From a virus, in the IMG/VR virus record IMGVR_UViG_3300021197_000592, positions 1-64,000 of that record: a DNA stretch of 64,000 nucleotides; one strand, written 5' to 3'. Within the stretch, counting starts at the first letter, position 1; the number at the start of each line of letters is the position of its first letter. The translations under genes and the position numbers were made by a program. Under the pieces are notes generated by a model. The model did not search any database. It saw only the letters and a list, made by a program, of their open reading frames with translations, and had not been told where the DNA came from. Positions 3,882 to 49,555 of the stretch are shown here, in pieces.

Positions 3882-4777
3882 TGATGGCTTGGTTTGATTT
3901 GGTTAGAAAAGACTTCTATTTCGGAGACAATGACCCTAACGCGGCTAATCTTGCATATCAACAACAAATGGAAGCGGCGGCACAGAATCCAGATACGATG
4001 GCTAGATTAAGAGCAGAAAGCCGTGCAAGAAACGAAAAAAGGAGTCAACTTGCGAACTTAGGTAGTGGTAAAGAATATGGGTATGCTAGAAACAGGACTC
4101 CATTTTTCGGAACTAATCTTTCAGCAGTCGGTAGAAAGGGAAAAGACCTGCAAGAGAAAGAGTGGTTCAAGGATGAGGATGAAATGGAGGATTACTACAC
4201 TGATATGATTAGTGAGATAGAAACACATGAGGGTACGCATCAAGCAATGAAACCAGCCCTGAGAGATGCGGCTAATGAGGAAAGACAAAAGAGAATTGAA
4301 GAGGCCAAGAAAAGAGGAATTAAGGTTCTCAGAGATAATGAAAGTAAACAAGGTGTGACTAATCTTGAGAATCCTACTCCCCAACAGCATCGAGGAGGAA
4401 AAAACTACTACGAATCAGATGCGAGTCTTCCCACTGAACCTTCTTTCTTCGACAAGGTAAGAAGAAGAAAGATTGCACCAGAGAGTGAATTCAATGTTAA
4501 ACCCGGCCAAATGTCTGAATGGGAGGAGAAGGGTGCTGGCACTGCTCAATTCTACACTCCGGCTCGCGGTGACAAACCGTGGACTAGTGCTACTAACTAT
4601 CCTTACTCATCAACAAGAGTTGACCCTGCGAAGTTCAAAGACCCGCGAGCAACTCAAGACCCCAAACAAATGAGGGACATGCAAATAGATGGCGGATATC
4701 AAGAAATACAAAGAGACAGGGAACAAAGGCAGAAACCATTCAATGAGTATTATGACACAGGGAGGGCTTCGTTTTGA
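3881..4777 (+). CDS. W-tagged protein (MAWFDLVRK) with HExxH motif, possible zincin-like metalloprotein
   Basis: EIETHEGTHQAM in a helical context; start could be 3878, 3881 or 3884. Confidence 0.6.
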   Translation: MMAWFDLVRKDFYFGDNDPNAANLAYQQQMEAAAQNPDTMARLRAESRARNEKRSQLANLGSGKEYGYARNRTPFFGTNLSAVGRKGKDLQEKEWFKDEDEMEDYYTDMISEIETHEGTHQAMKPALRDAANEERQKRIEEAKKRGIKVLRDNESKQGVTNLENPTPQQHRGGKNYYESDASLPTEPSFFDKVRRRKIAPESEFNVKPGQMSEWEEKGAGTAQFYTPARGDKPWTSATNYPYSSTRVDPAKFKDPRATQDPKQMRDMQIDGGYQEIQRDREQRQKPFNEYYDTGRASF

Positions 4778-5430
4778 TTACTAGAAAGAGATGCTCACTT
4801 TGCAATCACGAAGACCGTGACCAACTAGAGCATGACTTGGAGTCTATGGCTATCACTTCCGATGAGTTGGACAATCGAATGAACTGGCCTAGTGGCACAT
4901 CATCAAGACATCAGAGGAATCACATGGCTGGTTACACCAACACATCAAACCCAAGGTGCAAGATATGCATACATCCGATTCGCATAGAGATAGAGAAGCA
5001 AGTGCATGATGGGATAATGACACCAACGACTGCGGCAGAGGTAGTCGGTTGTTCGGAAGACCAAATCATGCGACACATGAAGCATCATCTACAACCACTA
5101 GTGCAGCAATCAGCAGCACAACTAATCGCACAGAAGGATGTCGATGAGATTGGAGTTCTCAGTAGCAACATCACTAGGCTTGAGTCGAAGGTTGACGACT
5201 TGTTCGCAGAGGATGGCCTCGACCCCAAGTACATCGACTCGCTGACCAAGTTGGCGAAGGAGATTCGTGAGAGCCTCAAGTACCTCATGGAGTTCAAGGG
5301 CAAGTTGGTTCACAAGAGGCAAGACACAATTATAGTTCATCAGATGCAAGTTATCAAGGAGGTTCTAGCACAGAACCATCCTGAAGTTTGGCTAGATGTC
5401 AGAAAGCAAATGGAGAGTAAGATGCAATGA
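4774..5430 (+). CDS. protein with two CxxCxH...HxxxH repeats and C-terminal coiled coil; terminase small subunit candidate
   Basis: CSLCNH..HQRNH and CKICIH..HMKHH; no W-tag; TerS call is from architecture only. Confidence 0.4.
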   Translation: MITRKRCSLCNHEDRDQLEHDLESMAITSDELDNRMNWPSGTSSRHQRNHMAGYTNTSNPRCKICIHPIRIEIEKQVHDGIMTPTTAAEVVGCSEDQIMRHMKHHLQPLVQQSAAQLIAQKDVDEIGVLSSNITRLESKVDDLFAEDGLDPKYIDSLTKLAKEIRESLKYLMEFKGKLVHKRQDTIIVHQMQVIKEVLAQNHPEVWLDVRKQMESKMQ

Positions 5431-11774: not shown

Positions 11775-12755
11775 ATGGAACTCTGGTTTGAGGACTTGAA
11801 GAAGAAGAAAGATGCTTGCTATCGCAAGGTCAGGAGCCGATACGACAAGTGGCCTTCTGCATATGCGTCAGGTGCGTTGGTACAGTGCCGAAAGGTCGGC
11901 GCAGCAAATTGGGGTAACTCAAAAAAAAAAGCATTGACCAAAGCAGAGTCAAAATGGGTAGATAAACTACCAGACGACAAGCAGAAACTTCTGGAAAAGA
12001 CTCCTAGTTTCGATGTGACATTCCCTGAGTATTCACATCCATCCAACGAGGAGGAACTCCCCAAGGTCATCGAGATGATGAAGGATAAGAAAATCGATGA
12101 GAGTGAGATAGAAGACCTAGACATGAACAACCATGAGATGATGTTGAAGATAGTCGGGGAGGAGATGGAAGATAGGGAGAAACTAATCGAGGACATCGAT
12201 ATCCACATAATCAAACTCAAGATGAAGTACAGAAGACCTAGACCGTATGAGATATCCGATAAGATAGAATCCATGACTAGCACGGATGACACACCGTCAT
12301 TCCCAAGTGGACATGCAACAGAATCGTATGCCCTTGCGAAGATACTAGGGAAGGAGCATCCCGATAAGCAGAAGGAACTCAATGAGATGGCAGAGAAGAT
12401 ATCCATGTCAAGGATACAGATGGGAAATCATTTCCCAAGTGATGTCGAGACTGGGAAGAAAGTCGGTGCATTGATTGCTGATGCGTATCTTGATTCGGAT
12501 AAAGTCAGTAAGAGTTGGCAGGAAGTAATATCCAAGGATTGGGTTAGTTGTTCGTCTTGCACAGATGACAAACCCGGAACAGAGCCTTGTGGTAGGAAGG
12601 ATGCATCAAAGGGACAGAAGAGAAGATGCAGACCGACTTGCTCTGCTTGTAGAGACTACAAGAGAAGGGGCGGAAAGCCGAAGAAAAGAAAGGCCGGAAC
12701 GTTCAGTAGAGAGAAGGACGAGGGGCTTCACGGTTGGTTCAAGAGGAGGGGTTGA
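11775..12755 (+). CDS. W-tagged multidomain protein with PAP2 / vanadium-haloperoxidase superfamily phosphatase domain
   Basis: Motifs KMKYRRPRP, PSFPSGH, SRIQMGNHFPSD; ATG 11775 after GGTGA; flanked by basic Cys-containing domains. Confidence 0.8.
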   Translation: MELWFEDLKKKKDACYRKVRSRYDKWPSAYASGALVQCRKVGAANWGNSKKKALTKAESKWVDKLPDDKQKLLEKTPSFDVTFPEYSHPSNEEELPKVIEMMKDKKIDESEIEDLDMNNHEMMLKIVGEEMEDREKLIEDIDIHIIKLKMKYRRPRPYEISDKIESMTSTDDTPSFPSGHATESYALAKILGKEHPDKQKELNEMAEKISMSRIQMGNHFPSDVETGKKVGALIADAYLDSDKVSKSWQEVISKDWVSCSSCTDDKPGTEPCGRKDASKGQKRRCRPTCSACRDYKRRGGKPKKRKAGTFSREKDEGLHGWFKRRG

Positions 12756-12818
12756 ATGAGTTGGTTCGACATCCTAAAAATAAGTGGACCGCCTAACATA
12801 TTCGGAGGTAAGGCCTGA
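12756..12818 (+). CDS. 20-aa tag-only micro-ORF MSWFDILKISGPPNIFGGKA
   Basis: Hand-translated; GAGGAGGGG upstream; stop overlaps terL ATG (TGATG). Confidence 0.65.
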   Translation: MSWFDILKISGPPNIFGGKA

Positions 12819-14260
12819 TGGAACTAGATGACATGGACTTCGTATCTGCGATGGACATGGAGTTGTCAAAGACATCGTTCCCTTACTTCTTCCAGAACGT
12901 ACTCGGCATGATGTTCCCACCATACATGGAAGAGTGGTTGGAATCCATGCAGAACACGGATAGGACTGTCATAATCTGTAGTCGTGACCACGGCAAGTCT
13001 GTTTTCATGCATTGTTGGGTGGTATGGAATCTAGTCTTCCAAGAACCGCCATATCAGATGCTATACATCTCATCGAACCAGAAGCAGACTCTAGTTCACA
13101 TGAGGGAGATTGACAGGTACTTCAATCATCCAGCACTAAAGAAGTTCCGACCCTCACGCAATTGGGCTATTGGTAACATACAACTCACAAACGGTAATGC
13201 GATACTTGAGAGGTCAGTAGGCTCTCAGATTCGTGGTCTTCACCCACAGGAGATTGTCATTGACGACCCCTTGAAGGAGTTCAGTCTATCAGCAATACAG
13301 AGAGTTACAGATTGGTTCTTCGGTGACATGATACCAACGCTTCACCATACATCCAACCTTCGTATGATTGGTACGCCATTCACATACACTGACATCTTTG
13401 CACAATTGGAGGAGAACCAAGCATACACCGTAACCAAGTATCCCTGTTTCAATGCATTGAACGAACCGCTTTGGCCTGAGCGTTGGGACCATGATGCACT
13501 CTTGCAGAGGAAGGCTGAGATAGGCTCTCTCAAGTTCACAAGGGAATACTTGTGCGTACCGATATCAACAGGTACTTCGTTGTTCAACCCTGAGTTCATA
13601 GAGAATTGCAAGAACAAGGAATACGTTCTGAAACTAGGGAATAGGAGGGATAAGGGATACAAGTATTACGTTGGGGTTGACCCAGCGATATCCACTGACG
13701 GTGACTACAATGTAATCACGGTGCTTGAGGTTGATGATGAGGCAAACAAGACAATTGTGCATGTTGACCGAGCCAAGAACGTTGAGTTCAGGGAGAACAT
13801 AGAGAAGATTAGATTGATTGGGAAGATATTCCAACCAGAGGTAGTTCTCTATGAGACTAACACATTCGCTAAGGCGTTCACTCAGGAATTGAGAAGCATC
13901 TCTGACTTGAACGTCAAGGACTTCGACACGACAAGGAAGAAGAAGCAGGAGATAATCTTGAACTTGCAGATGAACATAGAAAACAAAAAATTCAACTTTC
14001 CCTATGGCGATAACGCCAGCAGAAGGTTGACTAACCTCTTGATTGAGGAACTTTCTATGTTCAGCATCACGGACTCCGGTAGGTTTGAGGGAGTTGGTGC
14101 GCATGACGACTTGGTTATGAGCCTCGCTTTGGCTAATGCCGCTACCCAATCACCGGGGGAGAACTTTATTCTGCTAGACGACATGGACTTGTTTGATACG
14201 GCTCCGACATCGCCGGTAGGTAGTGGGATACCACCGGGTATTTTGGGATTGAATCTATAG
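12818..14260 (+). CDS. terL: terminase large subunit
   Basis: Walker A SRDHGKS, Walker B IVIDD, coupling motif GTP, nuclease VGVDPA ... HDDLVMS. Confidence 0.95.
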   Translation: MELDDMDFVSAMDMELSKTSFPYFFQNVLGMMFPPYMEEWLESMQNTDRTVIICSRDHGKSVFMHCWVVWNLVFQEPPYQMLYISSNQKQTLVHMREIDRYFNHPALKKFRPSRNWAIGNIQLTNGNAILERSVGSQIRGLHPQEIVIDDPLKEFSLSAIQRVTDWFFGDMIPTLHHTSNLRMIGTPFTYTDIFAQLEENQAYTVTKYPCFNALNEPLWPERWDHDALLQRKAEIGSLKFTREYLCVPISTGTSLFNPEFIENCKNKEYVLKLGNRRDKGYKYYVGVDPAISTDGDYNVITVLEVDDEANKTIVHVDRAKNVEFRENIEKIRLIGKIFQPEVVLYETNTFAKAFTQELRSISDLNVKDFDTTRKKKQEIILNLQMNIENKKFNFPYGDNASRRLTNLLIEELSMFSITDSGRFEGVGAHDDLVMSLALANAATQSPGENFILLDDMDLFDTAPTSPVGSGIPPGILGLNL

Positions 14261-14269
14261 GTGAATACA

Positions 14270-15604
14270 ATGGGAGAAAAAGGAGATAAACTCAGGGAGA
14301 TGGCTTCTCTCGCTGATGAGGAACAAACCCTAGTTGAAGAGCAGAAGAGGCTCTCTGACGAACTCAAGAGGTCTTGGTTATCAGAGCAGAACACGACCAA
14401 TCACTTTGACATAGAGAAGAAGTTCGCAGTAGAATATAGCATCTCCCTATCAGATGCCAAAAAGCAACTCAATGACGAGTTCAAGAAGTATGAGGTAGAG
14501 GGCAAGGACATTCCATCCCTCATCAAGGAACTCAAGGATTACCGAAGAACATTGAAAGGAGAGCAAAAGATAGCCATCACGGAATCGATTGACAATCTAA
14601 TCAAAGGATACGCATCTCATTTGGATAATACAATAGACAGAATATACTGGATTGCCAAGTACAAACCTGTAGTCAAGGAGATGGTTTGTTCCGAAGAGCA
14701 ACTAATCAAACTCTCATACATACATGACGAGAACACTAGAAGAGATGCGATTGATTCTCTATGCAAGTATTGGGAAGCCAAGTTGCATAGAGCAGATATA
14801 CCATATAACTCCGATTACTCATCCCTGTCGAAAGAAATGACAAATGGGAAGAGGGAGTTCAAGAAGATAATCAAGAATCATATGCCGAGCATCAGCCCGA
14901 AGGAGGTAATCAAACAAGAGATTCTTCACGCTGTCTGTGAGGAACCCGGCATATCGGCTAGACAGATTCATGAGAGACTACCGAAGAACCTGTTCAAGAA
15001 AACCTCGCCTAGTATAATTTCAAAGATGGCTAGGACTCAGAACATTACCACGATTGACGGTGCTTTCTACAAATTCAGTGATGAAATAAAGAAGGATATC
15101 TATGCATACACTGCCGCTTTCATAGACTCTGATGGATACATTACAATGGATAAAAACTTTAATCCAAGAGTCGGCCTAGTAGCAACAGGAGACAGGGGTA
15201 AGGCGTTCATGTTGGAGATGCACAAGTCCCTTGGGTGTGGTAGATTGCATCTAGACCAGAAATCCCCACAGGATACCAAACCTGTCAACAGACTAAACTT
15301 CTACTCTGCGGCGGATGTAAATGAGATTCTTACAAAATGCAAACCCTTCTTGAAGATGAAAGGAGCAAATGCAGACATACTATTGGAATTACTTAGAATG
15401 AAGAAGTCGCACAAGAAGGCAGAGTGGTACAAACCACGAAGGCAAGAGTTGTTTCAACTGATGAAGTACGAAAACCACAAAGACAATGCCAACTATGATT
15501 TTATTCAATATGGCATAGACAGAGACACAGTATCCAAATTCCATGAAAACTCTAAGATGACAGAGATGGATGTCATTGAAGGGGTCATAAAGACGGAGGC
15601 ATAG
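14270..15604 (+). CDS. helical/HTH-like N-terminus plus C-terminal LAGLIDADG endonuclease domain
   Basis: YTAAFIDSDGYI motif and downstream LGCGRL pattern; ATG 14270 after GGTGA. Confidence 0.8.
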   Translation: MGEKGDKLREMASLADEEQTLVEEQKRLSDELKRSWLSEQNTTNHFDIEKKFAVEYSISLSDAKKQLNDEFKKYEVEGKDIPSLIKELKDYRRTLKGEQKIAITESIDNLIKGYASHLDNTIDRIYWIAKYKPVVKEMVCSEEQLIKLSYIHDENTRRDAIDSLCKYWEAKLHRADIPYNSDYSSLSKEMTNGKREFKKIIKNHMPSISPKEVIKQEILHAVCEEPGISARQIHERLPKNLFKKTSPSIISKMARTQNITTIDGAFYKFSDEIKKDIYAYTAAFIDSDGYITMDKNFNPRVGLVATGDRGKAFMLEMHKSLGCGRLHLDQKSPQDTKPVNRLNFYSAADVNEILTKCKPFLKMKGANADILLELLRMKKSHKKAEWYKPRRQELFQLMKYENHKDNANYDFIQYGIDRDTVSKFHENSKMTEMDVIEGVIKTEA

Positions 15605-15605
15605 T

Positions 15606-17243
15606 ATGGCAGATGAAAAAAGAAGATTCAGAATAGGAAACCTATTTCGTAGGACAACTCCAAAACCAGCAGATAGAACAATATACAATCCGGGGATTCA
15701 GGAGAAGGACACATCGTATCTACTCACATCTCCTGTGATATACCACATAGCACAGCAATCAGTCATTGTCAGGACTTGCACTACTCAACTCAAGCAGGAG
15801 ATATTCAGAAGAGGATATCTGTGGGAAGAGAAATTCGTGAAGAGATGCAAAGACTGTGGTAAGGAACACCAGTCACCAGTTGAGCAATGTGTAGAGTGTG
15901 GCTCAATGAATCTAGAGAAGCCAAATCCACAACAACTGAAATACGCTCAGAAATTCCTAGGTGGCTACGTCAACAAATCAGAGCAGATGTTCATAGACGT
16001 ATTGAAGGAACTAGAGGATGACTTGAATATCATGGATGATGCATATCTTGTTATGGTGAAGGAATACTTCATAGATAACAACAACGAAATTCGTATGCAT
16101 CGAATCAAGGAGGTCTATCGTGGTGACCCCGTTTCAATGCACATCTATTCCAATGACACTGGTGAGAGAGGCAAAGGAGGATACATCTGTGTCAAACACA
16201 GGGACAGGATAGAAACAAGTCCCACTGGTCTTTGTGAAGAATGCAATTCCGAACTGCATCCTGTTCATTACGTGAACAGAGTCAAGGGAGAGGAACAGTA
16301 TTTCACGAAGGGTGAAGTGTTGCATTTCAGCAAATACTCACCCGGTAGGATGTACGGGCTATCACCAATCATAACGCTATGGAATCATGTTACGACTCTG
16401 ATAGCAATGGAGAACTACGTCAACTCATCATATACCAAGGCTAGAATGCCCAAGGGCCTACTAGCAGTGCAGACTAGGAACATCGATTCGATGAGGTCGT
16501 TTTGGCGAAGCGTCAAGGAGAAGATGGAGAAAGACCCACACTTCATTCCTGTGATGGGAATCGAAGCAGAAGGCGGTAAGGGTTCTGTCGAGTGGGTGAA
16601 GTTCATGGATAGCCTGAAAGAGATGGATTACATGTCTGTCAAGGATGACCTGAGAGATAGAATATCAGGGTTCTATGGAGTGAGCAAGGTATTCATGGCG
16701 GATAACTCTGCTAGTGGTGGGTTGAACAACGAGGGTATGCAGATACTCGTAACCAACCGAGCAGTCGAGATGGCTCAGACAATTTGGAACAACTATGTGT
16801 TCCCATTCATGACATCAGAGTTCGGTATAAGCGATTGGGAATTGAAACTACCACCATCCGAAGAGGAGGATGAGATTGCTAAACTGCGAAAGAGAGAGAT
16901 TGAGGTCAACGTAGCGGCGGCTATCAAGAATCTAGGGTTTGAGGTCAATATGGATGATGAGGGTAGATTCACCTACGTGAAGCCACCACAACCAGAAGAC
17001 CAACAACAAACAGATGACATCGAATTGGACCCATACGCTGGAACTAACATTGACCAATCACAACTCGGTCAGATGATGGAAACCGGAACTAGACCAACTG
17101 GCGAAGAAGCAGGTCAACCCGCGACTGTGAAAGGTAGAAACAAACCAAGCATGAGCGTTGGTCCCGACAAGAGATTCAGTGGTTTGCCAAGGGAAGCAGG
17201 GAATGAAAATGTCGATAGGCGTAGTGAGAGGCGGGTAGGTTGA
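15606..17243 (+). CDS. portal protein with Zn-ribbon insertions
   Basis: Position after terL; EVLHF...YGLSPI and RISGFYGV portal-like motifs; CKDC/CVEC and CVKH/CEEC. Confidence 0.9.
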   Translation: MADEKRRFRIGNLFRRTTPKPADRTIYNPGIQEKDTSYLLTSPVIYHIAQQSVIVRTCTTQLKQEIFRRGYLWEEKFVKRCKDCGKEHQSPVEQCVECGSMNLEKPNPQQLKYAQKFLGGYVNKSEQMFIDVLKELEDDLNIMDDAYLVMVKEYFIDNNNEIRMHRIKEVYRGDPVSMHIYSNDTGERGKGGYICVKHRDRIETSPTGLCEECNSELHPVHYVNRVKGEEQYFTKGEVLHFSKYSPGRMYGLSPIITLWNHVTTLIAMENYVNSSYTKARMPKGLLAVQTRNIDSMRSFWRSVKEKMEKDPHFIPVMGIEAEGGKGSVEWVKFMDSLKEMDYMSVKDDLRDRISGFYGVSKVFMADNSASGGLNNEGMQILVTNRAVEMAQTIWNNYVFPFMTSEFGISDWELKLPPSEEEDEIAKLRKREIEVNVAAAIKNLGFEVNMDDEGRFTYVKPPQPEDQQQTDDIELDPYAGTNIDQSQLGQMMETGTRPTGEEAGQPATVKGRNKPSMSVGPDKRFSGLPREAGNENVDRRSERRVG

Positions 17244-21556: not shown

Positions 21557-24199
21557 ATGCCTCGTTCTGGTCTAGCATTTGAGAAGGAAGAAGACGGACT
21601 CACTAAGAGAGTCCTTGATTTCTTTGAGCGCACCAGATTCGCATACCTCTCAGCAAAGGCAGACCCATCTGAGTATGGGAAGAAATGGAAGGACATCGTC
21701 AAGAAGATTCGTGAGGACTTCGACCAGATGAGCAACTTCGCTCAGGAGTTGAAGGAGTACGTCACTGAGAAGATTCTGTTCGATGATGATGTCTATGATG
21801 CCAAGTCGGGAACTGCCGAGACTCTGTTCAAGGAAATAAAGGAGATGAGATTCAAGTCGGAGAAGATAAGCGACCCCTTCTCCAAGTTGCTAGGTGATGA
21901 TGTCATTGACACATTCATGGAGAAGCCTGACATCTTCATATCATTCATCCATTATGCGATGCGCTCCCATTCCAACAAGATGCCTGACAAGATATACGAG
22001 TCACAGAAACTCAAGCCCGACCAGATAACTCAGGGAACGATGGGACTTGACTTGAAGGTAGAAGACATTCCACTTTACATCATAGAGCATTACGGAGCAG
22101 AGGGGAAGGACACTCGTAGGGTAAAGAGCAAGTTCAAGTCGTCATTCTCTAGATTGAAGGAGATGTACAACGAGACTTACCCGGAGGACAAGTGGGATGC
22201 TCTCGTTGACTTGGATGTTGTGAAAGCGGAGAAGAGCGAGGAGGAGAAGCAGGAAGTTGACTTCCTCATACCCAACAAGCCGATGTATCGAATCTTTGAG
22301 ACTGATGACTTGAAGCAACTCAAGGGATTCAGTGGTGAGTGGCTCGTTCAGGAGAAGTACGATGGGATGCGAATACAGATTCACAAGGATGGAGACAGCA
22401 TCAAGATATACTCATTCAACAAGAAGGACATCACGGATAAGTGTCCATTGCAAGTCAAGGAGATGGAGAAGAAGAACTTCGGTGACTGCATACTCGATGC
22501 TGAACTCACCCTATTCCTAGAAGATGAGCCATTGCATCGTGCTGATACTGTGGCACATGTGTTCAAGAAGGAAACGAAGGGAAGGCTATCTGCTCACGTT
22601 TTCGACATCATGAAGCATGAGGGCAAGATGATTGCCGATGAGCCACTGAGGGAAAGAGTGAACATTCTCTTCTACCAGTACAGTTCTCATTCCACTGAGA
22701 ATCTAGCATTCCCATCCAAGAAGGACACAAGAATAGCAGACTCAATCAAGGAGGTCGAGGACTACTCTAAGGTGATAATGGAACTACCATCATCAGAGGG
22801 AGTCGTAATCAAGGACATAGAATCCACATACATCATAGGAAAGCAGAAGAATCCTAAGTGGATAAAATGGAAGAAGTTTGTTGACTTGGATGTCGTAGTA
22901 TTGGATTCCAAGAAGACTGCTAGTGGACTCTTCTCTTACACTATGGGAATAGGGCCAGTAAATGCTGAGACAGCAAGAACCTACAAGACCACTGAACTAG
23001 GAGATAAAGCATATCTTTCAGTTGGGAAGGCATTGAACACTAAGGAAAAGGTGGATGTCGGTGATATAGTCAGAGTCAAGGTAGACGAAGTGAAGAAAGG
23101 CAAGGATGGTTTCAGTCTCTATTCGGCCAAGGTTATCGAGATACCAGAGGTAACGGAGTCTGACAAGGTAGAAACTCTAGAGCAACTATCAACCAAGACC
23201 AAGAAATCTCTTGACTCGGCTATAGAGTTCATTGCTGGTAAAGCAGTTGGTGATAGATTCAAAGTGATGAGTGGAGTTCAAAATGCTGCTAAAGCAAAGA
23301 CTGCTGCTGATATCGCTAGAGATAAGAAGAAGAAGAAGGTCAAGAAAGGGTATTACATCACGGATGACATACACGGTACTGCTGAGATAATACTCAAGTC
23401 AGACCTAGATGGGTTTACCATCTACGGTTTCAGCGGTGATGACCTGATGCAGAAGAATGCTCTGTACAACATAGACATCTGGAAGGAGCAAGTTACTGAG
23501 ATACTCAAAACAAAGAGGTCAGAACTGAGGGTTGGAATAAGAAACGATATCATTGAGCATGGTGATGACCCCAAGCCATTCGACAAGATACTGGATTTCG
23601 TAGAAGAACACTACAAGGACACCTACGAAGAACTGTTTGAGATGAAGCCTGACAAACTCATGTCATGGTTGAAGAGACAAGAGGACATACAGTACGTTCA
23701 CCCGAACAAGTTCCAAGCAAGAGATGACGTTCTTGAGAAAGACATTGAAGAGTTGAAAAAAAAAGACACTCCTAACCAAGGTAAATTCAAGTTGTTCCAA
23801 CGTGAAGACGGAAACATAGACTTCGTAATCAGAGCAGGTGGGGAGAAGATGGCTTGGACAATAGACATAGAAGACACAGAGGATGTGTTCAATCTGTTCG
23901 GGAAGTCTGGTAAGTTCCCTGCAATTGTGGCAACTACTGTAAATGAAGAGAAACTACTAGATGCAGGTGACTTGGAACTAGGAGTTCAGAAGGATGGATA
24001 TCATGAGTATAGGTTGGATGGTGATAAGTTCCAGACCAGAATGCACGTGCGAGTTGTTCCATTGGATGAGCAAAAAACATGGTTGGCTTGGACCGGAAAG
24101 AAACAAGAGATGTTAGACAAGACAGATGATGACGGAGTATGGATGATATCAGAAGATAAGTATGCTGATTTGCCATTTCCCAAGAAAAATAGCGAGTAG
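21557..24199 (+). CDS. lig: ATP-dependent DNA ligase with long N- and C-terminal extensions
   Basis: Motif I QEKYDG, ILDAEL, VFDIM, EGVVIK, KWIKWK, followed by an OB-fold region. Confidence 0.92.
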   Translation: MPRSGLAFEKEEDGLTKRVLDFFERTRFAYLSAKADPSEYGKKWKDIVKKIREDFDQMSNFAQELKEYVTEKILFDDDVYDAKSGTAETLFKEIKEMRFKSEKISDPFSKLLGDDVIDTFMEKPDIFISFIHYAMRSHSNKMPDKIYESQKLKPDQITQGTMGLDLKVEDIPLYIIEHYGAEGKDTRRVKSKFKSSFSRLKEMYNETYPEDKWDALVDLDVVKAEKSEEEKQEVDFLIPNKPMYRIFETDDLKQLKGFSGEWLVQEKYDGMRIQIHKDGDSIKIYSFNKKDITDKCPLQVKEMEKKNFGDCILDAELTLFLEDEPLHRADTVAHVFKKETKGRLSAHVFDIMKHEGKMIADEPLRERVNILFYQYSSHSTENLAFPSKKDTRIADSIKEVEDYSKVIMELPSSEGVVIKDIESTYIIGKQKNPKWIKWKKFVDLDVVVLDSKKTASGLFSYTMGIGPVNAETARTYKTTELGDKAYLSVGKALNTKEKVDVGDIVRVKVDEVKKGKDGFSLYSAKVIEIPEVTESDKVETLEQLSTKTKKSLDSAIEFIAGKAVGDRFKVMSGVQNAAKAKTAADIARDKKKKKVKKGYYITDDIHGTAEIILKSDLDGFTIYGFSGDDLMQKNALYNIDIWKEQVTEILKTKRSELRVGIRNDIIEHGDDPKPFDKILDFVEEHYKDTYEELFEMKPDKLMSWLKRQEDIQYVHPNKFQARDDVLEKDIEELKKKDTPNQGKFKLFQREDGNIDFVIRAGGEKMAWTIDIEDTEDVFNLFGKSGKFPAIVATTVNEEKLLDAGDLELGVQKDGYHEYRLDGDKFQTRMHVRVVPLDEQKTWLAWTGKKQEMLDKTDDDGVWMISEDKYADLPFPKKNSE

Positions 24200-24224
24200 G
24201 TTAAATAGTAAGAAAAAAAGGTGA
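24200..24224 (+). promoter_or_regulatory. possible archaeal TATA box (TTAAATA) and GGTGA SD upstream of protease/capsid genes
   Basis: TTAAATA at 24201-24207, about 25 nt before GTG 24230. Confidence 0.35.
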
Positions 24225-24229
24225 TTTGA

Positions 24230-25444
24230 GTGTTAGCAACAACAGGAGTATTATTGAAAGCAGAAACTGATGCCGAATTCAGCATTCTAAAATCAGATAA
24301 TCTAGTCATTGGAGGGTATGCATCTATAGAAATTGTAGACAAGCAAAACGACCTAATAACACTAGAAGCATTGGAAGAAGCAGTCAATAAATACATGGAA
24401 GAAGAAAAATACAGAAATGTAATGTCAAATCATTCAAATGTTCAAGTCGGGGAGGTCGTAGAAAAATATCGAGATTCAAACGGTGTCTTACACAAAACAG
24501 GTGTAGATGACGTTGGATTCTATGTAGTAATCAAGATGCGCGATGACATCGAGAAGGCTAAGGAAATCTCAAGAGGTATTAGAAAAGGAACTCTACGGTC
24601 ATTTAGTATAGGTGGACAAGCAATATCAAAGAGACAGAGAAAATCTGAGGAGTTCGGGGAATACAACGAGATAGAAAAACTTGAGTTGCATGAAGTTACT
24701 GTCTGTGAAAAAGGAATAAACCCGGAAGCGAAATTCGACATTTTAAAAATGGAGGAAAAAAATATGAGTGAAAAACTGGAAAAAGCCCTAGAGGAGTTGA
24801 ACAGCCTGATGAAGCAGGTCAATTCGCTCCGAAAGGAAGAAGAAAAAGAAGAAATGGAGAAAGGTGACATGTCAGAGATGATGGACACTGAAGAAATGAT
24901 GATGACCGAGGATGAGAAGATGGGCGGCGAGATGAAAGCCGATGACGATGAAGACATGGAGGAGAAGGCTCTTGATGAAGATTCAACAAGAGACTTTGAG
25001 GCCGGTGAGGAAGTCGTTAGCGGTGGCAACCCCGTTGCAACACCTGCTCCTCTAAAGGTATCAAAGGGATTGGAGAACGCTGATTTCTCTACTCTCGACC
25101 TAACTGTGGAGAATGTCGAAAAGGCATATGAAGCATTCAAGGCCGAGAAGTTAGAGGCAATGGCGTATGATTCCCTTAACAAAGAATTCAGTACCCGTCT
25201 AGAGGCAGAACTATCCGTAAAGAAATCAGTCGCAGAGAGAGCAGAGTACGATGCTCGCAACGATGTGGCTGCTCTTAAGGAAGAGTTCGCTGAACTACGC
25301 AAGTCTCTTTCGGCAGAAAGCGATGAGATAAAGAAGGCAAAGGAAGTTGCATTTGAGATACCAGAAGGCATCCCAAGCAACCTACAAGAGGCTTCTGAGA
25401 TTTCATGGAGTGACATTCACAATATTGTGGAGAGGTATCAGTGA
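24230..25444 (+). CDS. HK97-type prohead protease fused to acidic coiled-coil scaffold
   Basis: IGGYAS...DKQND, putative catalytic H (MSNHS), S (RSFSIGG), ELHEVTV; directly upstream of capsid gene. Confidence 0.92.
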   Translation: MLATTGVLLKAETDAEFSILKSDNLVIGGYASIEIVDKQNDLITLEALEEAVNKYMEEEKYRNVMSNHSNVQVGEVVEKYRDSNGVLHKTGVDDVGFYVVIKMRDDIEKAKEISRGIRKGTLRSFSIGGQAISKRQRKSEEFGEYNEIEKLELHEVTVCEKGINPEAKFDILKMEEKNMSEKLEKALEELNSLMKQVNSLRKEEEKEEMEKGDMSEMMDTEEMMMTEDEKMGGEMKADDDEDMEEKALDEDSTRDFEAGEEVVSGGNPVATPAPLKVSKGLENADFSTLDLTVENVEKAYEAFKAEKLEAMAYDSLNKEFSTRLEAELSVKKSVAERAEYDARNDVAALKEEFAELRKSLSAESDEIKKAKEVAFEIPEGIPSNLQEASEISWSDIHNIVERYQ

Positions 25445-25455
25445 GGTGATTAAGT

Positions 25456-26826
25456 ATGAGCAATGGACATATTAGAACAATAACAGACCTAGAAGCCAGC
25501 ACCTATGGCATGGTCGGAGGAACAGGGAACGCCCTGCTGAAGTCAGCAGGAGTAGTTGGAGGATTTGGAACCCCGCACGACAATTCGGGCAACAACTTCA
25601 GCGGTGCAAGTGGGCTTGGTGACCTATACAACTTGCTATACGGACAGAAAGTCTGGTCAATGCTAAATCAGGAAGTCAACGCACTGTCGATGATTTCCAA
25701 GAGGCCATACACTTCCAGTGGTTGGAGGGTTCTCAAGAGCCGACCTGCTGGTGGTAGTGGAAACGCATTCGCGGTTGGTACACAAGACCCCGGTGCAACT
25801 ACGGCTGACCTATCTGGAATATCCGCAGACAAGATTGGTGGTGTTGGAGAGAACGCAGTGCTTGGAGGAGATGCTTCATTCAGAGCATTGTCTCCTGAGT
25901 ACACGAAACTCTACGTCAGTCCAAAGACTGTGGCACACCTCTTTGAGTTCTCTGAACTCGGAATGGAGTTGGCTGCAATCGATGACGGTGTTGGTGACAT
26001 ACGCTCCATAGTCCGTGAGGACATGGGTAAGCACCACGCAGAGGTTCAGAACAAGATGCTTCTGATGCCACTAGAGTTCTACGACAAGGCAGAGTATGAC
26101 GAGATTGAGGAGAACTACACTTCTCTATTGAAGATAGTCTCGTCTGCCGGTGAACTTGCTGCAATGGGTGACGCAGATATGGGTGAGCAGAGTGCTGCCG
26201 CCGCAACACTGCCAGTCACACAGACCAAGATTTTCGGTGCAACCAGAACTGTCGCTAACAGCAGTGGTGACTACACTGGTACTGAGGACTTCCTCTCAGC
26301 AGAGGTTGACTTCGGTGCAGGATATGCCGCTGGTAACGCAAGGGTTCTAACCCTGACCCTCCTAAACGACATGATTAGGAGAATCAGGCAGAACGGAGGT
26401 AACCCCAAGGTCATGATTACTGGATACGATACTATCCAGCACATCTCTGACCTACTACAGAGCCAAGAGAGGTTCATGGACAGGAAGGAAATCGTACCTA
26501 CCCACAACGGAGTTCGTGGAGTAAAGGGTGCAGAGGTCGGATTCAGAGTTGCAACATACTATGACATCCCACTGATTCCAGCCAAGGACATGACACAGAC
26601 TGGTAATGCGACTGCAAACAAGTTGAGTGACATACTCATCCTAGACACTGACCACCTGTGGCTATCTGTAATGAAGCCGACTCAGTATTTCGAGAACGGT
26701 ATCACCAACGGTGACCCATTCGGGGTCGGAAAACTTGGGAACCAAGGCATGTACCGCACAATGGGCGAGACAGGCTGTTCGTTCTTCAAGGGTCAAGGAA
26801 AGATTACCAACATAACGAGTGCGTGA
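25456..26826 (+). CDS. major capsid protein (HK97 fold)
   Basis: Size and position after protease; strong GAGGTGA SD; capsid-like C-terminal pattern (IPLIP...ILILDT...YRTMGE). Confidence 0.9.
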   Translation: MSNGHIRTITDLEASTYGMVGGTGNALLKSAGVVGGFGTPHDNSGNNFSGASGLGDLYNLLYGQKVWSMLNQEVNALSMISKRPYTSSGWRVLKSRPAGGSGNAFAVGTQDPGATTADLSGISADKIGGVGENAVLGGDASFRALSPEYTKLYVSPKTVAHLFEFSELGMELAAIDDGVGDIRSIVREDMGKHHAEVQNKMLLMPLEFYDKAEYDEIEENYTSLLKIVSSAGELAAMGDADMGEQSAAAATLPVTQTKIFGATRTVANSSGDYTGTEDFLSAEVDFGAGYAAGNARVLTLTLLNDMIRRIRQNGGNPKVMITGYDTIQHISDLLQSQERFMDRKEIVPTHNGVRGVKGAEVGFRVATYYDIPLIPAKDMTQTGNATANKLSDILILDTDHLWLSVMKPTQYFENGITNGDPFGVGKLGNQGMYRTMGETGCSFFKGQGKITNITSA

Positions 26827-41609: not shown

Positions 41610-44600
41610 ATGGGTACGACAGACAAGGGCAAGGCACTATTCGTGATGAATGCTGGTAAAACGGAGTCAGACATCACAGACGACAGTACGTCATTTGACT
41701 ATGGTGACCATGCTACGAAGAAAACAGAGGCATATCTATCTACATCTGTAAATCCTCTATTCGTACAGAACAATCTACAGTACGAGAACTCATTAATAGG
41801 CACAGACTCTACGTGTGATTACAATAATGACCCTACTATTACAATGGATGATACGTCTATTTTAGTAGTGGGAATGGGAGTTTCGGGAACTGGAATACCA
41901 TCAGGAGCAACAGTTGCAAGCATCACCAATAGTACAACATTTGAGTTAAGTGTATCTACTACTGGTGGTGCTGTAACTAATGGCACACTTACTTTTAGCA
42001 AACTTGTCAATTCAGCGAACTTCATAGAGATAAGAAAGGACTCTCATGGCGGGTCTATCAGCAATGATTTGGCAGATAAGGTAGGAAACAGATTGTATCC
42101 CGGTAACACTACGCTGACTTCCTTCGCTCAGAACAGAAATGAGACACATTCCTTCAAACTAAAAGTATTTGACTCACAGGTTGCTAACTCTGAAACAAAC
42201 AGGAAGTTAGTCTACTCCACATCTAATTATCCTGCTACCGAGGAGATAGGGCTGGATATAGAGAACTATGACTACTTCGTTCTCTTGAATCCCGATACGG
42301 TCCAGATGGGTGCTGATGCAGTAAGACCACACTTTGCAAAGGTAACTAGAATCATAACGTTCGATGAGTTTGGAGATGGCTTAGAGTTCAGTCCACCGTA
42401 CCCAACCGAGGTTCCCCTCAACACCAAGTTTGAGATATACAAGGGACCAGCGAAGACCGCTACTGATATCGTAGCAGTCAGTTATGGATTGAGAGGAGAT
42501 ACATCCTCTTCTACTCCGAAGCATGATAGGGTCAATGTATGCAGTAGACCAACTTGGTACTTCTATGATGAGAGACTGGATGAGAAAAACCAGTTGGATT
42601 ACATGACCAAGTACAACGCTACTCATCTACGATGGTGGGGATACTCAACGAACATATCCATCACCGAGGTAAAGGAACACGCACAGTTCGCAGTCGGCTC
42701 TAACACTGTCAAGTTCATCACTAGTGGTAGCAGTGATACAAACAAACTCTCTGTGGGTATGTCTCTGTTCAATGCCAGTGATGTGTATCTAGGAAACATA
42801 GAAAGCATATCAAGCAACGATGTACTTCTGGACTTTGCAAGAATAGCAGTCAGTGCGACCACATCTGACTTCAACGTGAAAGTAGGTAAGACGATACAGA
42901 ATGTGATATTCAGGACAGAGGGCAAGTTTGACAATACGATACCAAGTCTAGGTAAAGAGAGATTAGATGCTGTTCTTGTTGATGCGAATCTGACCAGTGA
43001 CGACTCAAATTCTAGTGATTTCTATCGATGGCAAAATGCATTCCCGAAGATGCATCGCCATACAGCGAATTCAGATACAACCACTGCTACTACATTGGAT
43101 GGTAATCTTACTGGACCCGGAAAGTATGTTACCTTTGAATTAGCGAATTTTAAGAACAATAGGATTCCTCATGTTATAGATGCTATAGTTAACAATCCTC
43201 GCAATAAAATGAGCCAAATAGGAAAGTTCAGCATAATAGACAACAGTGGACTGCAACACTTGAAGGTTCAAGAAGAGGACGATTTGATTATTCAGAAAAA
43301 TATCCACAATGATGATTTAAAATTAATCGCTTTTCATGGCACAGCAGCAAGGGATTCATCTAACACCTCCTTGATTGTATTGAGTGATATCAAGAAGGAA
43401 ACTGAACTGAGAGCAATACTCTCAACAAACGACATCGTTGAGATTGATGGCTATCAGTATGTGGTCAATGCGGTAAACGCACAGTCTAGCGGTACGCAAT
43501 CATTCACGGTAAAGGACAAGAAACTCAGGACTGCCAATACTTGGACTGGCAGTGCAGTAGCAGAGAACTTCACTGGAAAGACGCTGTTCTTGACTCCTTA
43601 CACAGGAGTTCTCAATACGGAGTTAGAACCTGATACCGAGTTCAACTATACGCAAAGCAGGTTGAATATTGATGGCATCACCGTAGAGAAGGAGAAGACC
43701 AAACTCTACAACGCTAGATTGGTGAATGGCATATTCAACGGTCACGACAATAAGATAGACTATGGTGACAGGGACAACAAGTATCTCAAGATGCAAGACT
43801 CAGACAGGGTGTTCTACCAAAGAAGTAATGAGAACCTCAGTCGTTTCTACTACTACAAAGGAGCATATGCAGTCAGTGACACTGTATTCACTGGGATAGT
43901 GGAGGATGTGACCAGTAGTGCGGAGAATGGCCTCAGTACCCTGAACATCGTGGGCAGGGATGAGACATCCCAACTACTCACTCAAACCATCACTAGGGAT
44001 ACTTTGCTCTTGGATGATGTGGTGCATACCAATGTGCCACCAACATTGAGTCACGCAACTACCCTGACTGGTTTCGCTACGGAGGACAGTGGCGTGAATG
44101 TCAATGGCGCATTGAGTGCCGGGGCTTACAATTCGATTGTCGTGGATGGTACTGACCCTAGAACTAAATTCGTGGTAGGTGATAAAATCTACAAAGACGA
44201 TGGAACATTCATTGGTGTCATTACTGTTATGGCAAATGCCAATACAATCTCCTTAGACTCTGCTGATTTAAGCACAAGACCAGCACTGGCTGATAATCAC
44301 AATCTGCACAAGTCTGTAATCATAGACAACGGACAAGTCGTTGAAACTCTTTCTGGTAATGTAAATGCAACTGGATACATTAGCCTGTCTCCGGGTGGAC
44401 TAAGTGACCTTAACGTTGCTCCGAAAAGAGGAGGAATACTGATGAACCAAGCGGGGGAGTTCGTTGGGGTTGTCAAGGACACAAGCAATAATAGCGTCTT
44501 GTATCTATTCAATTCGCCTGTTTCCACGGCTACAGTCACAACCGACTTGAAGTATTACCATCCGTATGATAGTTCATTCGTGAACGTAATGACCGGAACG

Positions 44601-47600
44601 AAGGTGTTAGCAAGCAACCCGAATAACTCTGGTCTACAGGGAATGGAATCCACCAGTGAACAGGGAATAAACTTCAACAGTGGATTGAAACTCATCTCGA
44701 CTCCGGCTAACACCACTCAAACCATTACCACTAGTAAACTGAGAGCAACCTCAAACGAAGGAACATACTCCAAAGATAGAACACTTGGATATGACATATC
44801 CAATGTCAAGTCGCTCTCTACAAATGACTCCTTCTTCTCCTTCAACCTTGCAAATGAGAACGGAGTAAGTTCCACAACTCAGGATATTAAGACTGTAGCG
44901 AAAGATATGTTCCACGTGGTTGACGTACAAGAGAAAGCAGAGGGTACGACTACGATGACTCTTGCTCCTAATATGCCAGTTGTGCTTGGAAGACTTGATT
45001 CCAACACCTCTGACACTAGAGGTAATACCGCCTTGTACTTCGTTAATTCCAACTTGGATACTGGTGGTTTCGTTCATCGTCTAGCAGATACACACGTAGG
45101 CGCACATCTGAGTTTTGACCACGTTAACGGAGGAGGAACCACGAAGGAACCCGGAATATACGGGACCAAGGAGACAATGAGGTATTGGGATTTTCAAAGA
45201 TTGACGCCCGGCATACTAAGCACGACATACGATAGCATATACAACATTGGTCTAACACCTCAGAAGATACAGGGATATGCAATTGCCTACGGAACGAAAC
45301 TAGATGGCACAGTAACCACCCCCTCTACCACTCCTACAGGAAAGCCGATTCATGGTAGTAATACCCTCAAGGGTTGGGAGTATATTGGTAATTTCTATGG
45401 GGGCGGAATAGACCCCGATACCCTTGTCGAATCATATGATGCCTCCGATAGTGAGACTGCGTATGAGGCGGATATAGACTATGATGTCTTTGAGCAGATA
45501 GACCCACGGGCTACTACTTACGAACTACTGGCTACTGGTGATATATTGCCAAACTCAAAACTAAGAGATAATAACATTGGATACCACACTTTTAGTTTCG
45601 ATGAGTTCGGTGTTCTTCTAGAATCAGAGCCTAACGTAACGGGGACAACCAACCATGAGAAGTACACTGGAACAAGCCAAACTACATCCCAAACAGAGAA
45701 CATGTTTGAGGAGAACTCAATACAATCTGCAACGATAACCACTAACCAAATCAGGAGATTCGGGGTAATGAGACTAGTGGAGGCTACCTTTGATTGGCAT
45801 TTCAATCCGGTTGAATTCGATGCTCTGAAGAAAAGCGATGAGATTCCACTAGTAGGATACTTTGACTACATCACAATGAAAGACCCTACAGAACATCAAG
45901 ACACTGGTAGCATCACTGTAAACAATAGTGGTACTATAACTTCTGAATCCGTGACTGACACTGCGGGAGATATGTTCTATTCCTCTAACCTTGTCGGAGA
46001 TTTCCCATTTAAATCCACACTGCCTACCCAAGTAGCGGGTATCAATGGGTTAGTTGCTATCAAGAAGACTGATAATAGTAGTTTTGTGAGTAATAATGCA
46101 TTCACAATAAGCGGTGTAAATGGCTTTACTACTAGTGGGGAACTATTGAAATTTGCAGGAAGCAGTTCTAAACAAGGAGTACACCACTACAAGGTCTTTG
46201 GAACCACTGACTACAACATTGAAAGTCTAACCACTAGGGGCGGTCATGCTAATCTATTGACAGATTTGACACAGGGCAAGAACGCAATTAGATGGACTGA
46301 TGTATTTATTGCTAGACCTAGTTACTTTGGAACGAACTTCAAGTATGCCTTATTACAAGAGGACAGTGGTGACGGGTCTGACACATACAACCCGCATAAT
46401 ATCATACTGCCATTGATTGTGGAGGAACAATCTGCTAATGGGACTAATCGGACATCCAGAACCAAGCACCCATTCAGTATAGATGGGTTCACTGGATACA
46501 ATCACATCTCAAGGGTGATTTGTGGATTGTCTGATAGAACCTTCGCTACTCACGGTAGTAATTTCGGTGTAGGGGATAAGTTCGGACATGGGAATAGTGC
46601 CGCGATTGATGAGGGTAGCGCACACCCATATGCAGGTTGCATAGCACTGTTCAAGGATGTCAGAAGCAGTGCGGCGGGGGTCAAGTACGAATTGATGAGC
46701 AGTCCTTTGCAGTTGGACTCACACTCTAATTACACAGGATATATCTCAACTATATCAGGTGAGAACGACCACGACCAGCACACTAGGAATTGCATGATAC
46801 AAGAGTATGGCACTAACAATTTCCTTGCTATGCTAGGAACCAAGACAAAGGATGTCCAATACTTGCAGAATCTAGATGATAGCAATCACGATAGGCTATT
46901 TGAGAACACAACAACTAATACCGCATTGGAAGCATCAGGAGTAACACTCAACGATGGTGGCGGTATTAATGCTAATTCTACAACTACTCTTACCGTTGAT
47001 GGTAAGGATGCTACTGACCATTTCTCTGTAGGTGATATTGTATTTGATGAGAGTAGCGTACTCATAGGTGTGGTGGCATCACTTGTGGATGACGAAATAA
47101 CACTAGTTGCTAACAATGCAATTGCTGTGTCTGATAATGAGAACCTAAAGAAGCATGTTGTTCCTATCTCAACTCGTCTTAGAGTTGATGACCATAACAG
47201 CCTAGTTAACTCTTCTAAGGGGACTAAGGTAGATTCAGCCCAACTGTTGTTGAAACCCACACTCAGGCTAGGCACTGGGCAGGGAGTAACATACAGTAAT
47301 AGCAATAAAACGGCTACCTTCGTATTAGATGAATTGAACTATGTTAGTAATGGGAACCCTTGGTTGAGTTACATGCCTGATTTGACGGGACATTACATTG
47401 TCTCAGAGGAAACTACCCTTGGAGTAGATATCACTGAGACACAAACAAAGAGTTCACCTAAGTTCATCTCTAAGATAACCAGCCATGTAATCTCCACCGC
47501 CCCTTCCGGCTTTACTAATGAGCAACACACAATTACATTTGATAGGGCTATCGACACCAGCACCAACGGCAATGACTATCGTTTGATGCGTCCAGCAGAA

Positions 47601-49226: not shown

Positions 49227-49555
49227 TAGTTAACACAGGGAAAGAAGCGTTGGCAACAACAATGGCAAGCACATACACGAAGGTAAAGGTTGGAAATGGA
49301 GGGGATGATACTGCTGCTTCACAAAGCGCGTTAGACTCCTTTGTGGCAGAGAAAACTGTCACTCCCTCTGTTATAGGGTCACAATTGGTTTGGACTGCAA
49401 CATTCACAGGTGCAGAGTTAGGGACACAAGGAGTATCAGAACTAGGCATATTCGATACTTCCAACACGTTATTGAGCCGAGTCACGTTCACAAACACCGG
49501 GGTTGTAGCGTCAGCGGATACTGTGACATTTACAATTAGAGTGGAGGTAGACTGA
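49223..49555 (+). CDS. small tail/fibre attachment protein
   Basis: MIVNTGKEALA...VSELGIFD...LLSR pattern of fibre-attachment domains. Confidence 0.6.
   Translation: MIVNTGKEALATTMASTYTKVKVGNGGDDTAASQSALDSFVAEKTVTPSVIGSQLVWTATFTGAELGTQGVSELGIFDTSNTLLSRVTFTNTGVVASADTVTFTIRVEVD

Follow-up and report, generated by a model that had tools for sequence, protein, structure and literature searches.

A protease–scaffold fusion of a magrovirus and its candidate lysine-directed role in head maturation

The protease–scaffold gene and its surroundings

The DNA considered here—64,000 nucleotides, positions 1 to 64,000 of IMG/VR record IMGVR_UViG_3300021197_000592, referred to as the window—is part of a 98-kb magrovirus genome, that is, of a tailed virus of Marine Group II archaea. 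Magroviruses are among the commonest archaeal viruses of the surface ocean, and we know of no cultured representative. All genes of the window lie on the plus strand, among them the two that concern us most: a gene encoding a fusion of head protease and scaffold (404 amino acids, 24230–25444) and the adjoining gene of the HK97-fold major capsid protein (456 amino acids, 25456–26826). Both products carry a short motif in which a lysine is preceded two places earlier by a hydrophobic residue (h-x-K) and usually followed by a small one, and h-x-K also recurs in MSWxDILK tags, which sit at the N-termini of unrelated window proteins. An earlier note on this stretch had proposed that the protease is lysine-specific and that the tags end in its cut site, which would tie them to head maturation. 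The magrovirus literature open to search names merely a "prohead protease."

The assignment of the enzyme rests on several lines. Residues 26–179 match Pfam Peptidase_S78 (PF04586) with 38.6 bits against a cut-off of 21, and the whole protein matches the PHROG head maturation protease (E 2.7e-15). An AlphaFold2 (AF2) model based on an alignment of 97 homologues reaches a mean predicted local distance difference test score (pLDDT) of 79.4 and exceeds 95 in the protease domain; it was used instead of a single-sequence model of the whole protein, whose protease domain scored 46.6. In this alignment the catalytic pair His68 (24431–24433) and Ser126 (24605–24607) is invariant, and Lys173 (24746–24748) is at least 90% conserved. 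The best Foldseek matches of the model are herpesvirus proteases (E 7.5e-5) and T4 gp21 (5jbl; template modeling score 0.58 on the target). A search by sequence returned neither a solved S78 structure nor a close capsid structure that would have placed the start of the capsid N-arm. Hence, the enzyme is well supported by sequence as an archaeal-virus serine protease of the HK97 gp4 type (MEROPS S78).

The protease domain comprises residues 22–173 (24293–24748). It is preceded by 21 disordered residues (24230–24292)—a candidate propeptide that holds the sites VLLK10↓A and SILK21↓S, the arrow marking a candidate cut. In the AF2 model residues 1–20 have pLDDT values below 50 and the first strand spans residues 26–33, so that Lys21 lies ahead of the fold, as the earlier note had it. 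An assignment of SILK21 to this first strand was dropped for the same reason. The linker that follows K21↓S varies from three to seven residues across relatives. At the other end, the last protease strand (168–173, KFDILK) closes with Lys173 as the final residue of the domain, and a five-residue linker leads to the first scaffold helix, which begins at residue 179. DILK↓M thus marks the protease–scaffold boundary, again in agreement with the earlier reading.

The scaffold part (residues 179–404, 24764–25444) continues the protease reading frame to its C-terminal end and holds seven h-x-K↓[SAG] sites. It is predicted to form long helices (179–215, 293–338, and 342–367) interrupted by an acidic disordered stretch (218–290). 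A candidate nested start lies at its beginning: GGAGG (24751–24755) is followed, after an 8-nucleotide spacer, by ATG (24764–24766, Met179), six codons past Lys173. Across some 70 distinct relatives this position holds, with a single exception, a codon able to start translation: ATG, or TTG for Leu, or GTG for Val. GGAGG or GGTGA stands upstream throughout the virus group of the window. Four database proteins (P0004, P0097, P0101, and P0110) begin exactly here. These three observations suggest that the nested start probably yields free scaffold, made in excess of the fusion.

The scaffold ends in a tail (25382–25441) with the sequence ISWSDIHNIV, predicted as a helix from Trp393 to residue 403 and resembling the MSWxDILK tag. 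The tail motif M-[ST]-W-x-[DE]-[ILV]-H is conserved in distant scaffolds, and we infer that the SW tail binds the capsid protein. In the form [MT]-[ST]-W-x-[DE]-[ILV], the motif is found at the C-terminus of many distant protease–scaffold proteins (among them P0018, P0036, P0043, and P0089), and hence is probably the general capsid-binding element of the family.

The gene sits in a head module with the order large terminase (TerL, 12818–14260), portal (15606–17243), protease–scaffold, and major capsid protein; a DNA ligase gene (21557–24199) lies within the module, ahead of the protease–scaffold gene. The capsid protein matches Pfam SU10_MCP (34.2 bits, cut-off 24.1) and the PHROG major head protein phrog_24667 (E 8.4e-21). 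The GTG start of the protease–scaffold gene at 24230 is preceded by the ribosome-binding motif GGTGA (24220–24224)—GGTGA or GAGGTGA also precedes many other window genes—and aligns with an ATG in relatives.

Motif counts and lysine specificity

All motif instances that had been quoted for the two proteins are present in their sequences. Apart from K10, K21, and DILK173↓M, the protease–scaffold contains LEK185↓A, MEK211↓G, VSK279↓G, VEK298↓A, VKK332↓S, LRK358↓S, and IKK369↓A, and two extra matches at K109 and K119 lie inside the protease fold. The capsid protein has ALLK29↓S as well as matches at K94↓S and K445↓G. For a test of enrichment, each of the 54 window proteins was shuffled 5000 times and matches to [LIVMF]-x-K-[SAG] were counted. 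The protease–scaffold has 11 matches against 2.2 expected, a number reached in 0 of 5000 shuffles, with 7 against 1.2 in the scaffold part taken by itself; comparable enrichment is absent from the other 53 window proteins. Replacement of the central lysine by E, R, D, or Q leaves no enrichment in this protein (for E, 3 against 3.8 expected), even though Glu is its commonest residue, far ahead of Lys. Hence, neither lysine content—the explanation that the earlier note had named as fatal to its proposal—nor a generic periodicity of amphipathic helices accounts for the signal.

The enrichment extends to the family. Among 1.84 billion representative proteins, a search found 1219 homologues. In 104 distant ones, the stretches downstream of the protease domain contain the motif 313 times, against an expectation of 150. 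With the central residue exchanged, the ratio falls to 1.35 for R, to 1.22 for E, and to about 1.0 for D, Q, N, S, T, and A, and the enrichment is confined to the register in which P3 is hydrophobic and P1′ small (P3 being the third position before the predicted cut and P1′ the first after it). A total of 82 of the 104 homologues lie above expectation, with about 1.5 surplus sites per protein; the distance between site and scaffold C-terminus shows no sharp peak among distant homologues. In a second group of magroviruses (group 2), the protease–scaffold of genome G003 has 12 matches against 2.0 expected.

For HK97 phage, the 103-residue scaffolding (delta) domain taken from the GenBank record contains four sites against 0.77 expected (p 0.004), and the mature part of the same capsid protein contains one against 0.71. 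One of the four, TFNK103↓S104, is the published maturation cut (PMC10275583). The gp23 protein of phage P1 is cleaved at E120↓S121, that is, after Glu, which makes this phage uninformative on lysine specificity. To our knowledge, K103↓S104 of HK97 is the sole published cut site of an S78 enzyme. It is most likely that the magrovirus head protease, like the HK97 enzyme, cuts after lysine.

The motif might instead be a structural habit of a coiled-coil scaffold, with Lys and a small residue recurring at fixed heptad positions and no proteolysis involved. Most scaffold sites do lie in predicted long helices, and the slight family excess of h-x-R and h-x-E would fit such a habit. However, glutamate remains unenriched in the protease–scaffold itself, a single register stands out, and the motif is also found at disordered stretches, at domain borders, and in the capsid leader. 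Other K/E-rich helical proteins of the genome are depleted in it, and the HK97 cut site fits it, which together make this explanation improbable. Lysines that serve as acceptors for another modification—for example, ubiquitin-like conjugation or capsid cross-linking—are an explanation to which we give hardly any credit, as the pattern also occurs in HK97 and in numerous homologues without any reported conjugation system, and nothing in the present analysis points to conjugation.

Some further counts are given for completeness. Two untagged group-2 proteins (G003:C1:20120-21343 and 11825-12547) have 8 h-x-K-[SAG] matches against 2.05 expected and 4 against 0.49, respectively. The window genes 14261–15604 and 4774–5430, likely counterparts by gene position and similar N-terminal sequence only, are not enriched. 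Two giant proteins of 2538 and 3262 amino acids (41610–59343) have 4 matches against 7.8 expected and 1 against 6.2, for which composition may be the cause.

Conserved sites, capsid leader, and tagged proteins

The placement of the sites was compared across 80 IMG/VR relatives, whose capsid proteins are 70 to 100% identical. Neither FxILK↓S ahead of the fold nor FDILK at the end of the domain varies, and the scaffold sites V[KR]K↓[S/A], LRK↓[S/A], and I-x-K↓[A/S/G/T] are nearly invariant; these last three—K332, K358, and K369—are kept in relatives down to 40% identity. K10 is variable, with N, E, Q, or T in its place in some relatives. The comparison can be carried further by group 2 and by the haloarchaeal tailed viruses HVTV-1, HCTV-1, and HCTV-5, whose proteases are about 30% identical and which are the nearest relatives in culture. 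Both magrovirus groups retain the context of K21↓S, and so does HVTV-1, in which the site comes after 170 residues. Ahead of the fold, group-2 proteases carry DF[IL]LK↓S and the HVTV-1 protein carries PVFK↓S. The end of the domain is marked by hLK↓M in group 2 and by VVSK↓A in HVTV-1, and the C-terminal site is h-x-K↓S in group 2, some 35 residues before the end, and EVQK↓S in HVTV-1, 26 residues before it.

Lys369 (IKK↓A, 25334–25336) is a candidate tail-release site. The last long helix ends here, 35 residues short of the C-terminus and on the border to a stretch predicted as disordered (368–384); the site is matched by IQK↓S in group 2, by VQK↓S in HVTV-1, and by sites in distant scaffolds. 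The distant free-standing scaffolds P0097, P0101, P0110, and P0020 keep both C-terminal sites together with the SW tail.

In the capsid protein, the leader (residues 1–29; 25456–25545 including the codon of Ser30) ends in ALLK29↓S30, a candidate maturation cut. LLK↓[S/A] is invariant among 65 relatives of at least 70% identity, and ALLK↓[S/A] across the 80 IMG/VR relatives. A homologue search with the capsid protein gave best 120 matches that are all at least 68% identical; more distant capsid proteins were reached by an IMG/VR scan with P0015, and a scan with P0012 gave no matches. Group-2 capsid proteins, 36% identical, keep TDLLK↓[A/S]D, after which the next 18 to 35 residues are unrelated in sequence and length. 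The leader of HVTV-1 is basic, comprises 102 residues, and contains LAK↓A, LMK↓S, LRK↓A, and finally MSK102↓A103; the spacing from MSK102↓AD to a G-x-x-V-[WF]-S motif is 18 residues, equal to that in group 2.

The tags carry the same lysine element. All 15 window tags contain h-x-K, nearly always as their last residues. In group 2 a different tag, M-x-x-F-D-x-A-W-x-h-h-K, is found on eight genes upstream of the head module (L166/L167, G003:C1:346-18685), and the residue that follows its Lys is M, A, A, S, G, A, N, and A, hence small in six of eight. The tags of the two groups differ at the front and have h-x-K in common, which makes the lysine end the part shared by both types. The scaffold tail has the SW-x-D-I core of the window tags and no Lys, so that the lysine is apparently dispensable for whatever the core binds.

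Two side observations concern the tags. The group-2 capsid leader (NAWAYSGTDLLK) and protease N-end (ATWSADGSDFLLK) hold the same W...LLK elements as the group-2 tag. In the window, a 20-codon reading frame at 12756–12818 encodes little beyond a tag (MSWFDILKISGPPNIFGGKA); its stop codon overlaps the terminase start in another frame (TGATG), and it could be a tag-only peptide, a remnant, or a site of frameshifting.

If a lysine-directed protease is enclosed in the same shell, proteins packaged with it are expected to shed h-x-K sites. The bodies of tagged proteins—with the tags removed—were compared with expectation. The 13 tagged window proteins have 42 h-x-K against 57 expected (P 0.008), the eight of group 2 have 14 against 27 (P 0.003), and both groups pooled have 56 against 84.5 (P<0.001). 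In the same bodies, none of h-x-R, h-x-E, and h-x-D falls below expectation, and in tail proteins and other head proteins h-x-K is at expectation. This avoidance of h-x-K by tagged proteins is a new finding; as a property of sequence it supports both lysine specificity and entry of the tagged proteins into the head. An enriched scaffold set against depleted cargo gives independent support for an encounter of the tagged gene products with the head protease, and the contrast might serve as a general test, by sequence alone, for packaged proteins.

Proposed maturation pathway and known systems

The pathway that we favor, with a probability of roughly 0.6, is that an HK97-type protease enters the shell on its scaffold and cuts at h-x-K sites, whereby it would release itself, detach and fragment the scaffold, trim the capsid leader, and probably clip the tags. 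The conserved C-terminal SW-helix would probably anchor the scaffold and the attached protease under the capsid shell. After shell assembly, the enzyme is expected to cut after a lysine with a hydrophobic residue two places earlier and, usually, a small residue next. The cut at K21↓S22 would remove its own disordered N-end and the cut at K173 would part it from the scaffold, which might then be fragmented at sites of which K332, K358, and K369 are the conserved ones. Of these, K369 would free the anchoring tail. The capsid leader would be trimmed at K29↓S30, and the MSWxDILK tags would probably be clipped off the neighboring cargo proteins. In this sense, the lysine specificity claimed by the earlier note gains from the family-wide enrichment, the fit of the HK97 site, and the conserved border and leader sites in three virus clades, with each cut itself a prediction.

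Several points weigh against this pathway. The motif was picked after the sequence had been inspected, and the homologues share ancestry, which makes the family counts less than fully independent. Of the scaffold sites listed earlier, K332, K358, and K369 stand as conserved; relatives vary at K185 and K211, which may be chance or redundant. The conservation of K173 and K21 could be structural. Ser, Ala, or Gly follows the tag lysine in just 2 of the 15 window tags, and Met follows the lysine at the protease–scaffold border, which implies either a loose P1′ rule or tags that are poor substrates. The pattern said to be common to tag and head proteins therefore holds for its hydrophobic-x-K part and not for its small P1′ residue. 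Finally, the capsid leader is strongly conserved—T8, D11, E13, Y17, G18, and G21 are invariant—and may thus stay in the mature N-arm.

These last points would suit an enzyme that cuts itself and the scaffold only—as the proteases of phage lambda and of herpesviruses do—and leaves leader and tags uncut, with their lysines used for binding or for packing of the N-arm. The shortness of the leader, 29 residues conserved across groups, and the missing small residue in most window tags speak for it. Against it, LLK↓[S/A] stands out in two groups as a conserved island beside a variable linker, and a matching site follows a much longer, basic leader in HVTV-1. For the tags, the lysine-free SW-D-I core of the scaffold tail suggests that Lys is not needed for a shared binding role, and the scarcity of h-x-K in cargo bodies indicates that these meet the enzyme. 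We regard an uncut leader and uncut tags as the main alternative, yet an unlikely one, and retain the pathway with leader trimming and probable tag clipping. The proposed tie between the tag array and head maturation is partly supported: the avoidance in cargo speaks for it, and the missing small residue in most window tags against it.

A broader idea, to which we give somewhat less than an even chance, is that hydrophobic-x-Lys acts as one code that sorts everything entering the head: the scaffold would be loaded with it and destroyed, and passengers would be purged of it except at the tag end and survive. If this is true, the signature of enrichment and avoidance could predict the capsid cargo of uncultured viruses from sequence alone. 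The pathway also offers a testable maturation map—a protease starting at Ser22, a split at K173, release of the tail at K369, and a mature capsid protein predicted to start at Ser30—for which the culturable halovirus HVTV-1 might serve as a test bed.

In comparison to known systems, the magrovirus enzyme shares its Pfam family and His/Ser pair with HK97 gp4. The HK97 site TFNK↓S fits the hydrophobic-x-K-small rule, and the HK97 scaffolding domain is enriched like the magrovirus scaffold. However, the HK97 scaffold makes up the first 103 residues of the capsid protein, and the protease is a separate protein of 225 amino acids, whereas the magrovirus fuses scaffold and protease and has a capsid leader of 29 residues; its host, moreover, is an archaeon. 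Lysine specificity is expected from HK97, and there are known precedents for fused or nested protease–scaffold genes, so that the present system is an archaeal-virus addition to the HK97-type (S78) system.

Nested protease and scaffold genes are found in herpesviruses and some phages. In herpesviruses the protease is fused to a scaffold that also has its own nested in-frame start; one cut separates the two parts, and another removes the C-terminal capsid-binding tail. Their UL26/UL26.5 system thus resembles the magrovirus arrangement, and herpesvirus proteases are the best fold matches at a sequence identity of about 10 to 14%; their cut sites are (V/L)-x-A↓S, whereas those of the magrovirus are lysine-based and predicted from sequence.

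T4 gp21 has a related fold and belongs to another protease family (S77). Its motif is I/L-x-E (PMC12991175). Both rules combine a hydrophobic P3 with a charged P1 residue—Glu in T4, Lys in the magrovirus. The capsid targeting sequence of T4 and the magrovirus tag are both short N-terminal tags on unrelated proteins; the T4 tag ends in a site of the protease itself, and the magrovirus tag ends in a candidate one. Unlike in T4, the magrovirus tag copies the tail motif of the scaffold C-terminus, and packaging of the tagged proteins is predicted.

The haloviruses HVTV-1, HCTV-1, and HCTV-5 have a protease–scaffold fusion as in the magrovirus and h-x-K↓S/A at the same four places. HVTV-1 differs by its 170-residue N-terminal protease extension, by a very acidic scaffold of 300 residues, and by its 102-residue basic capsid leader.

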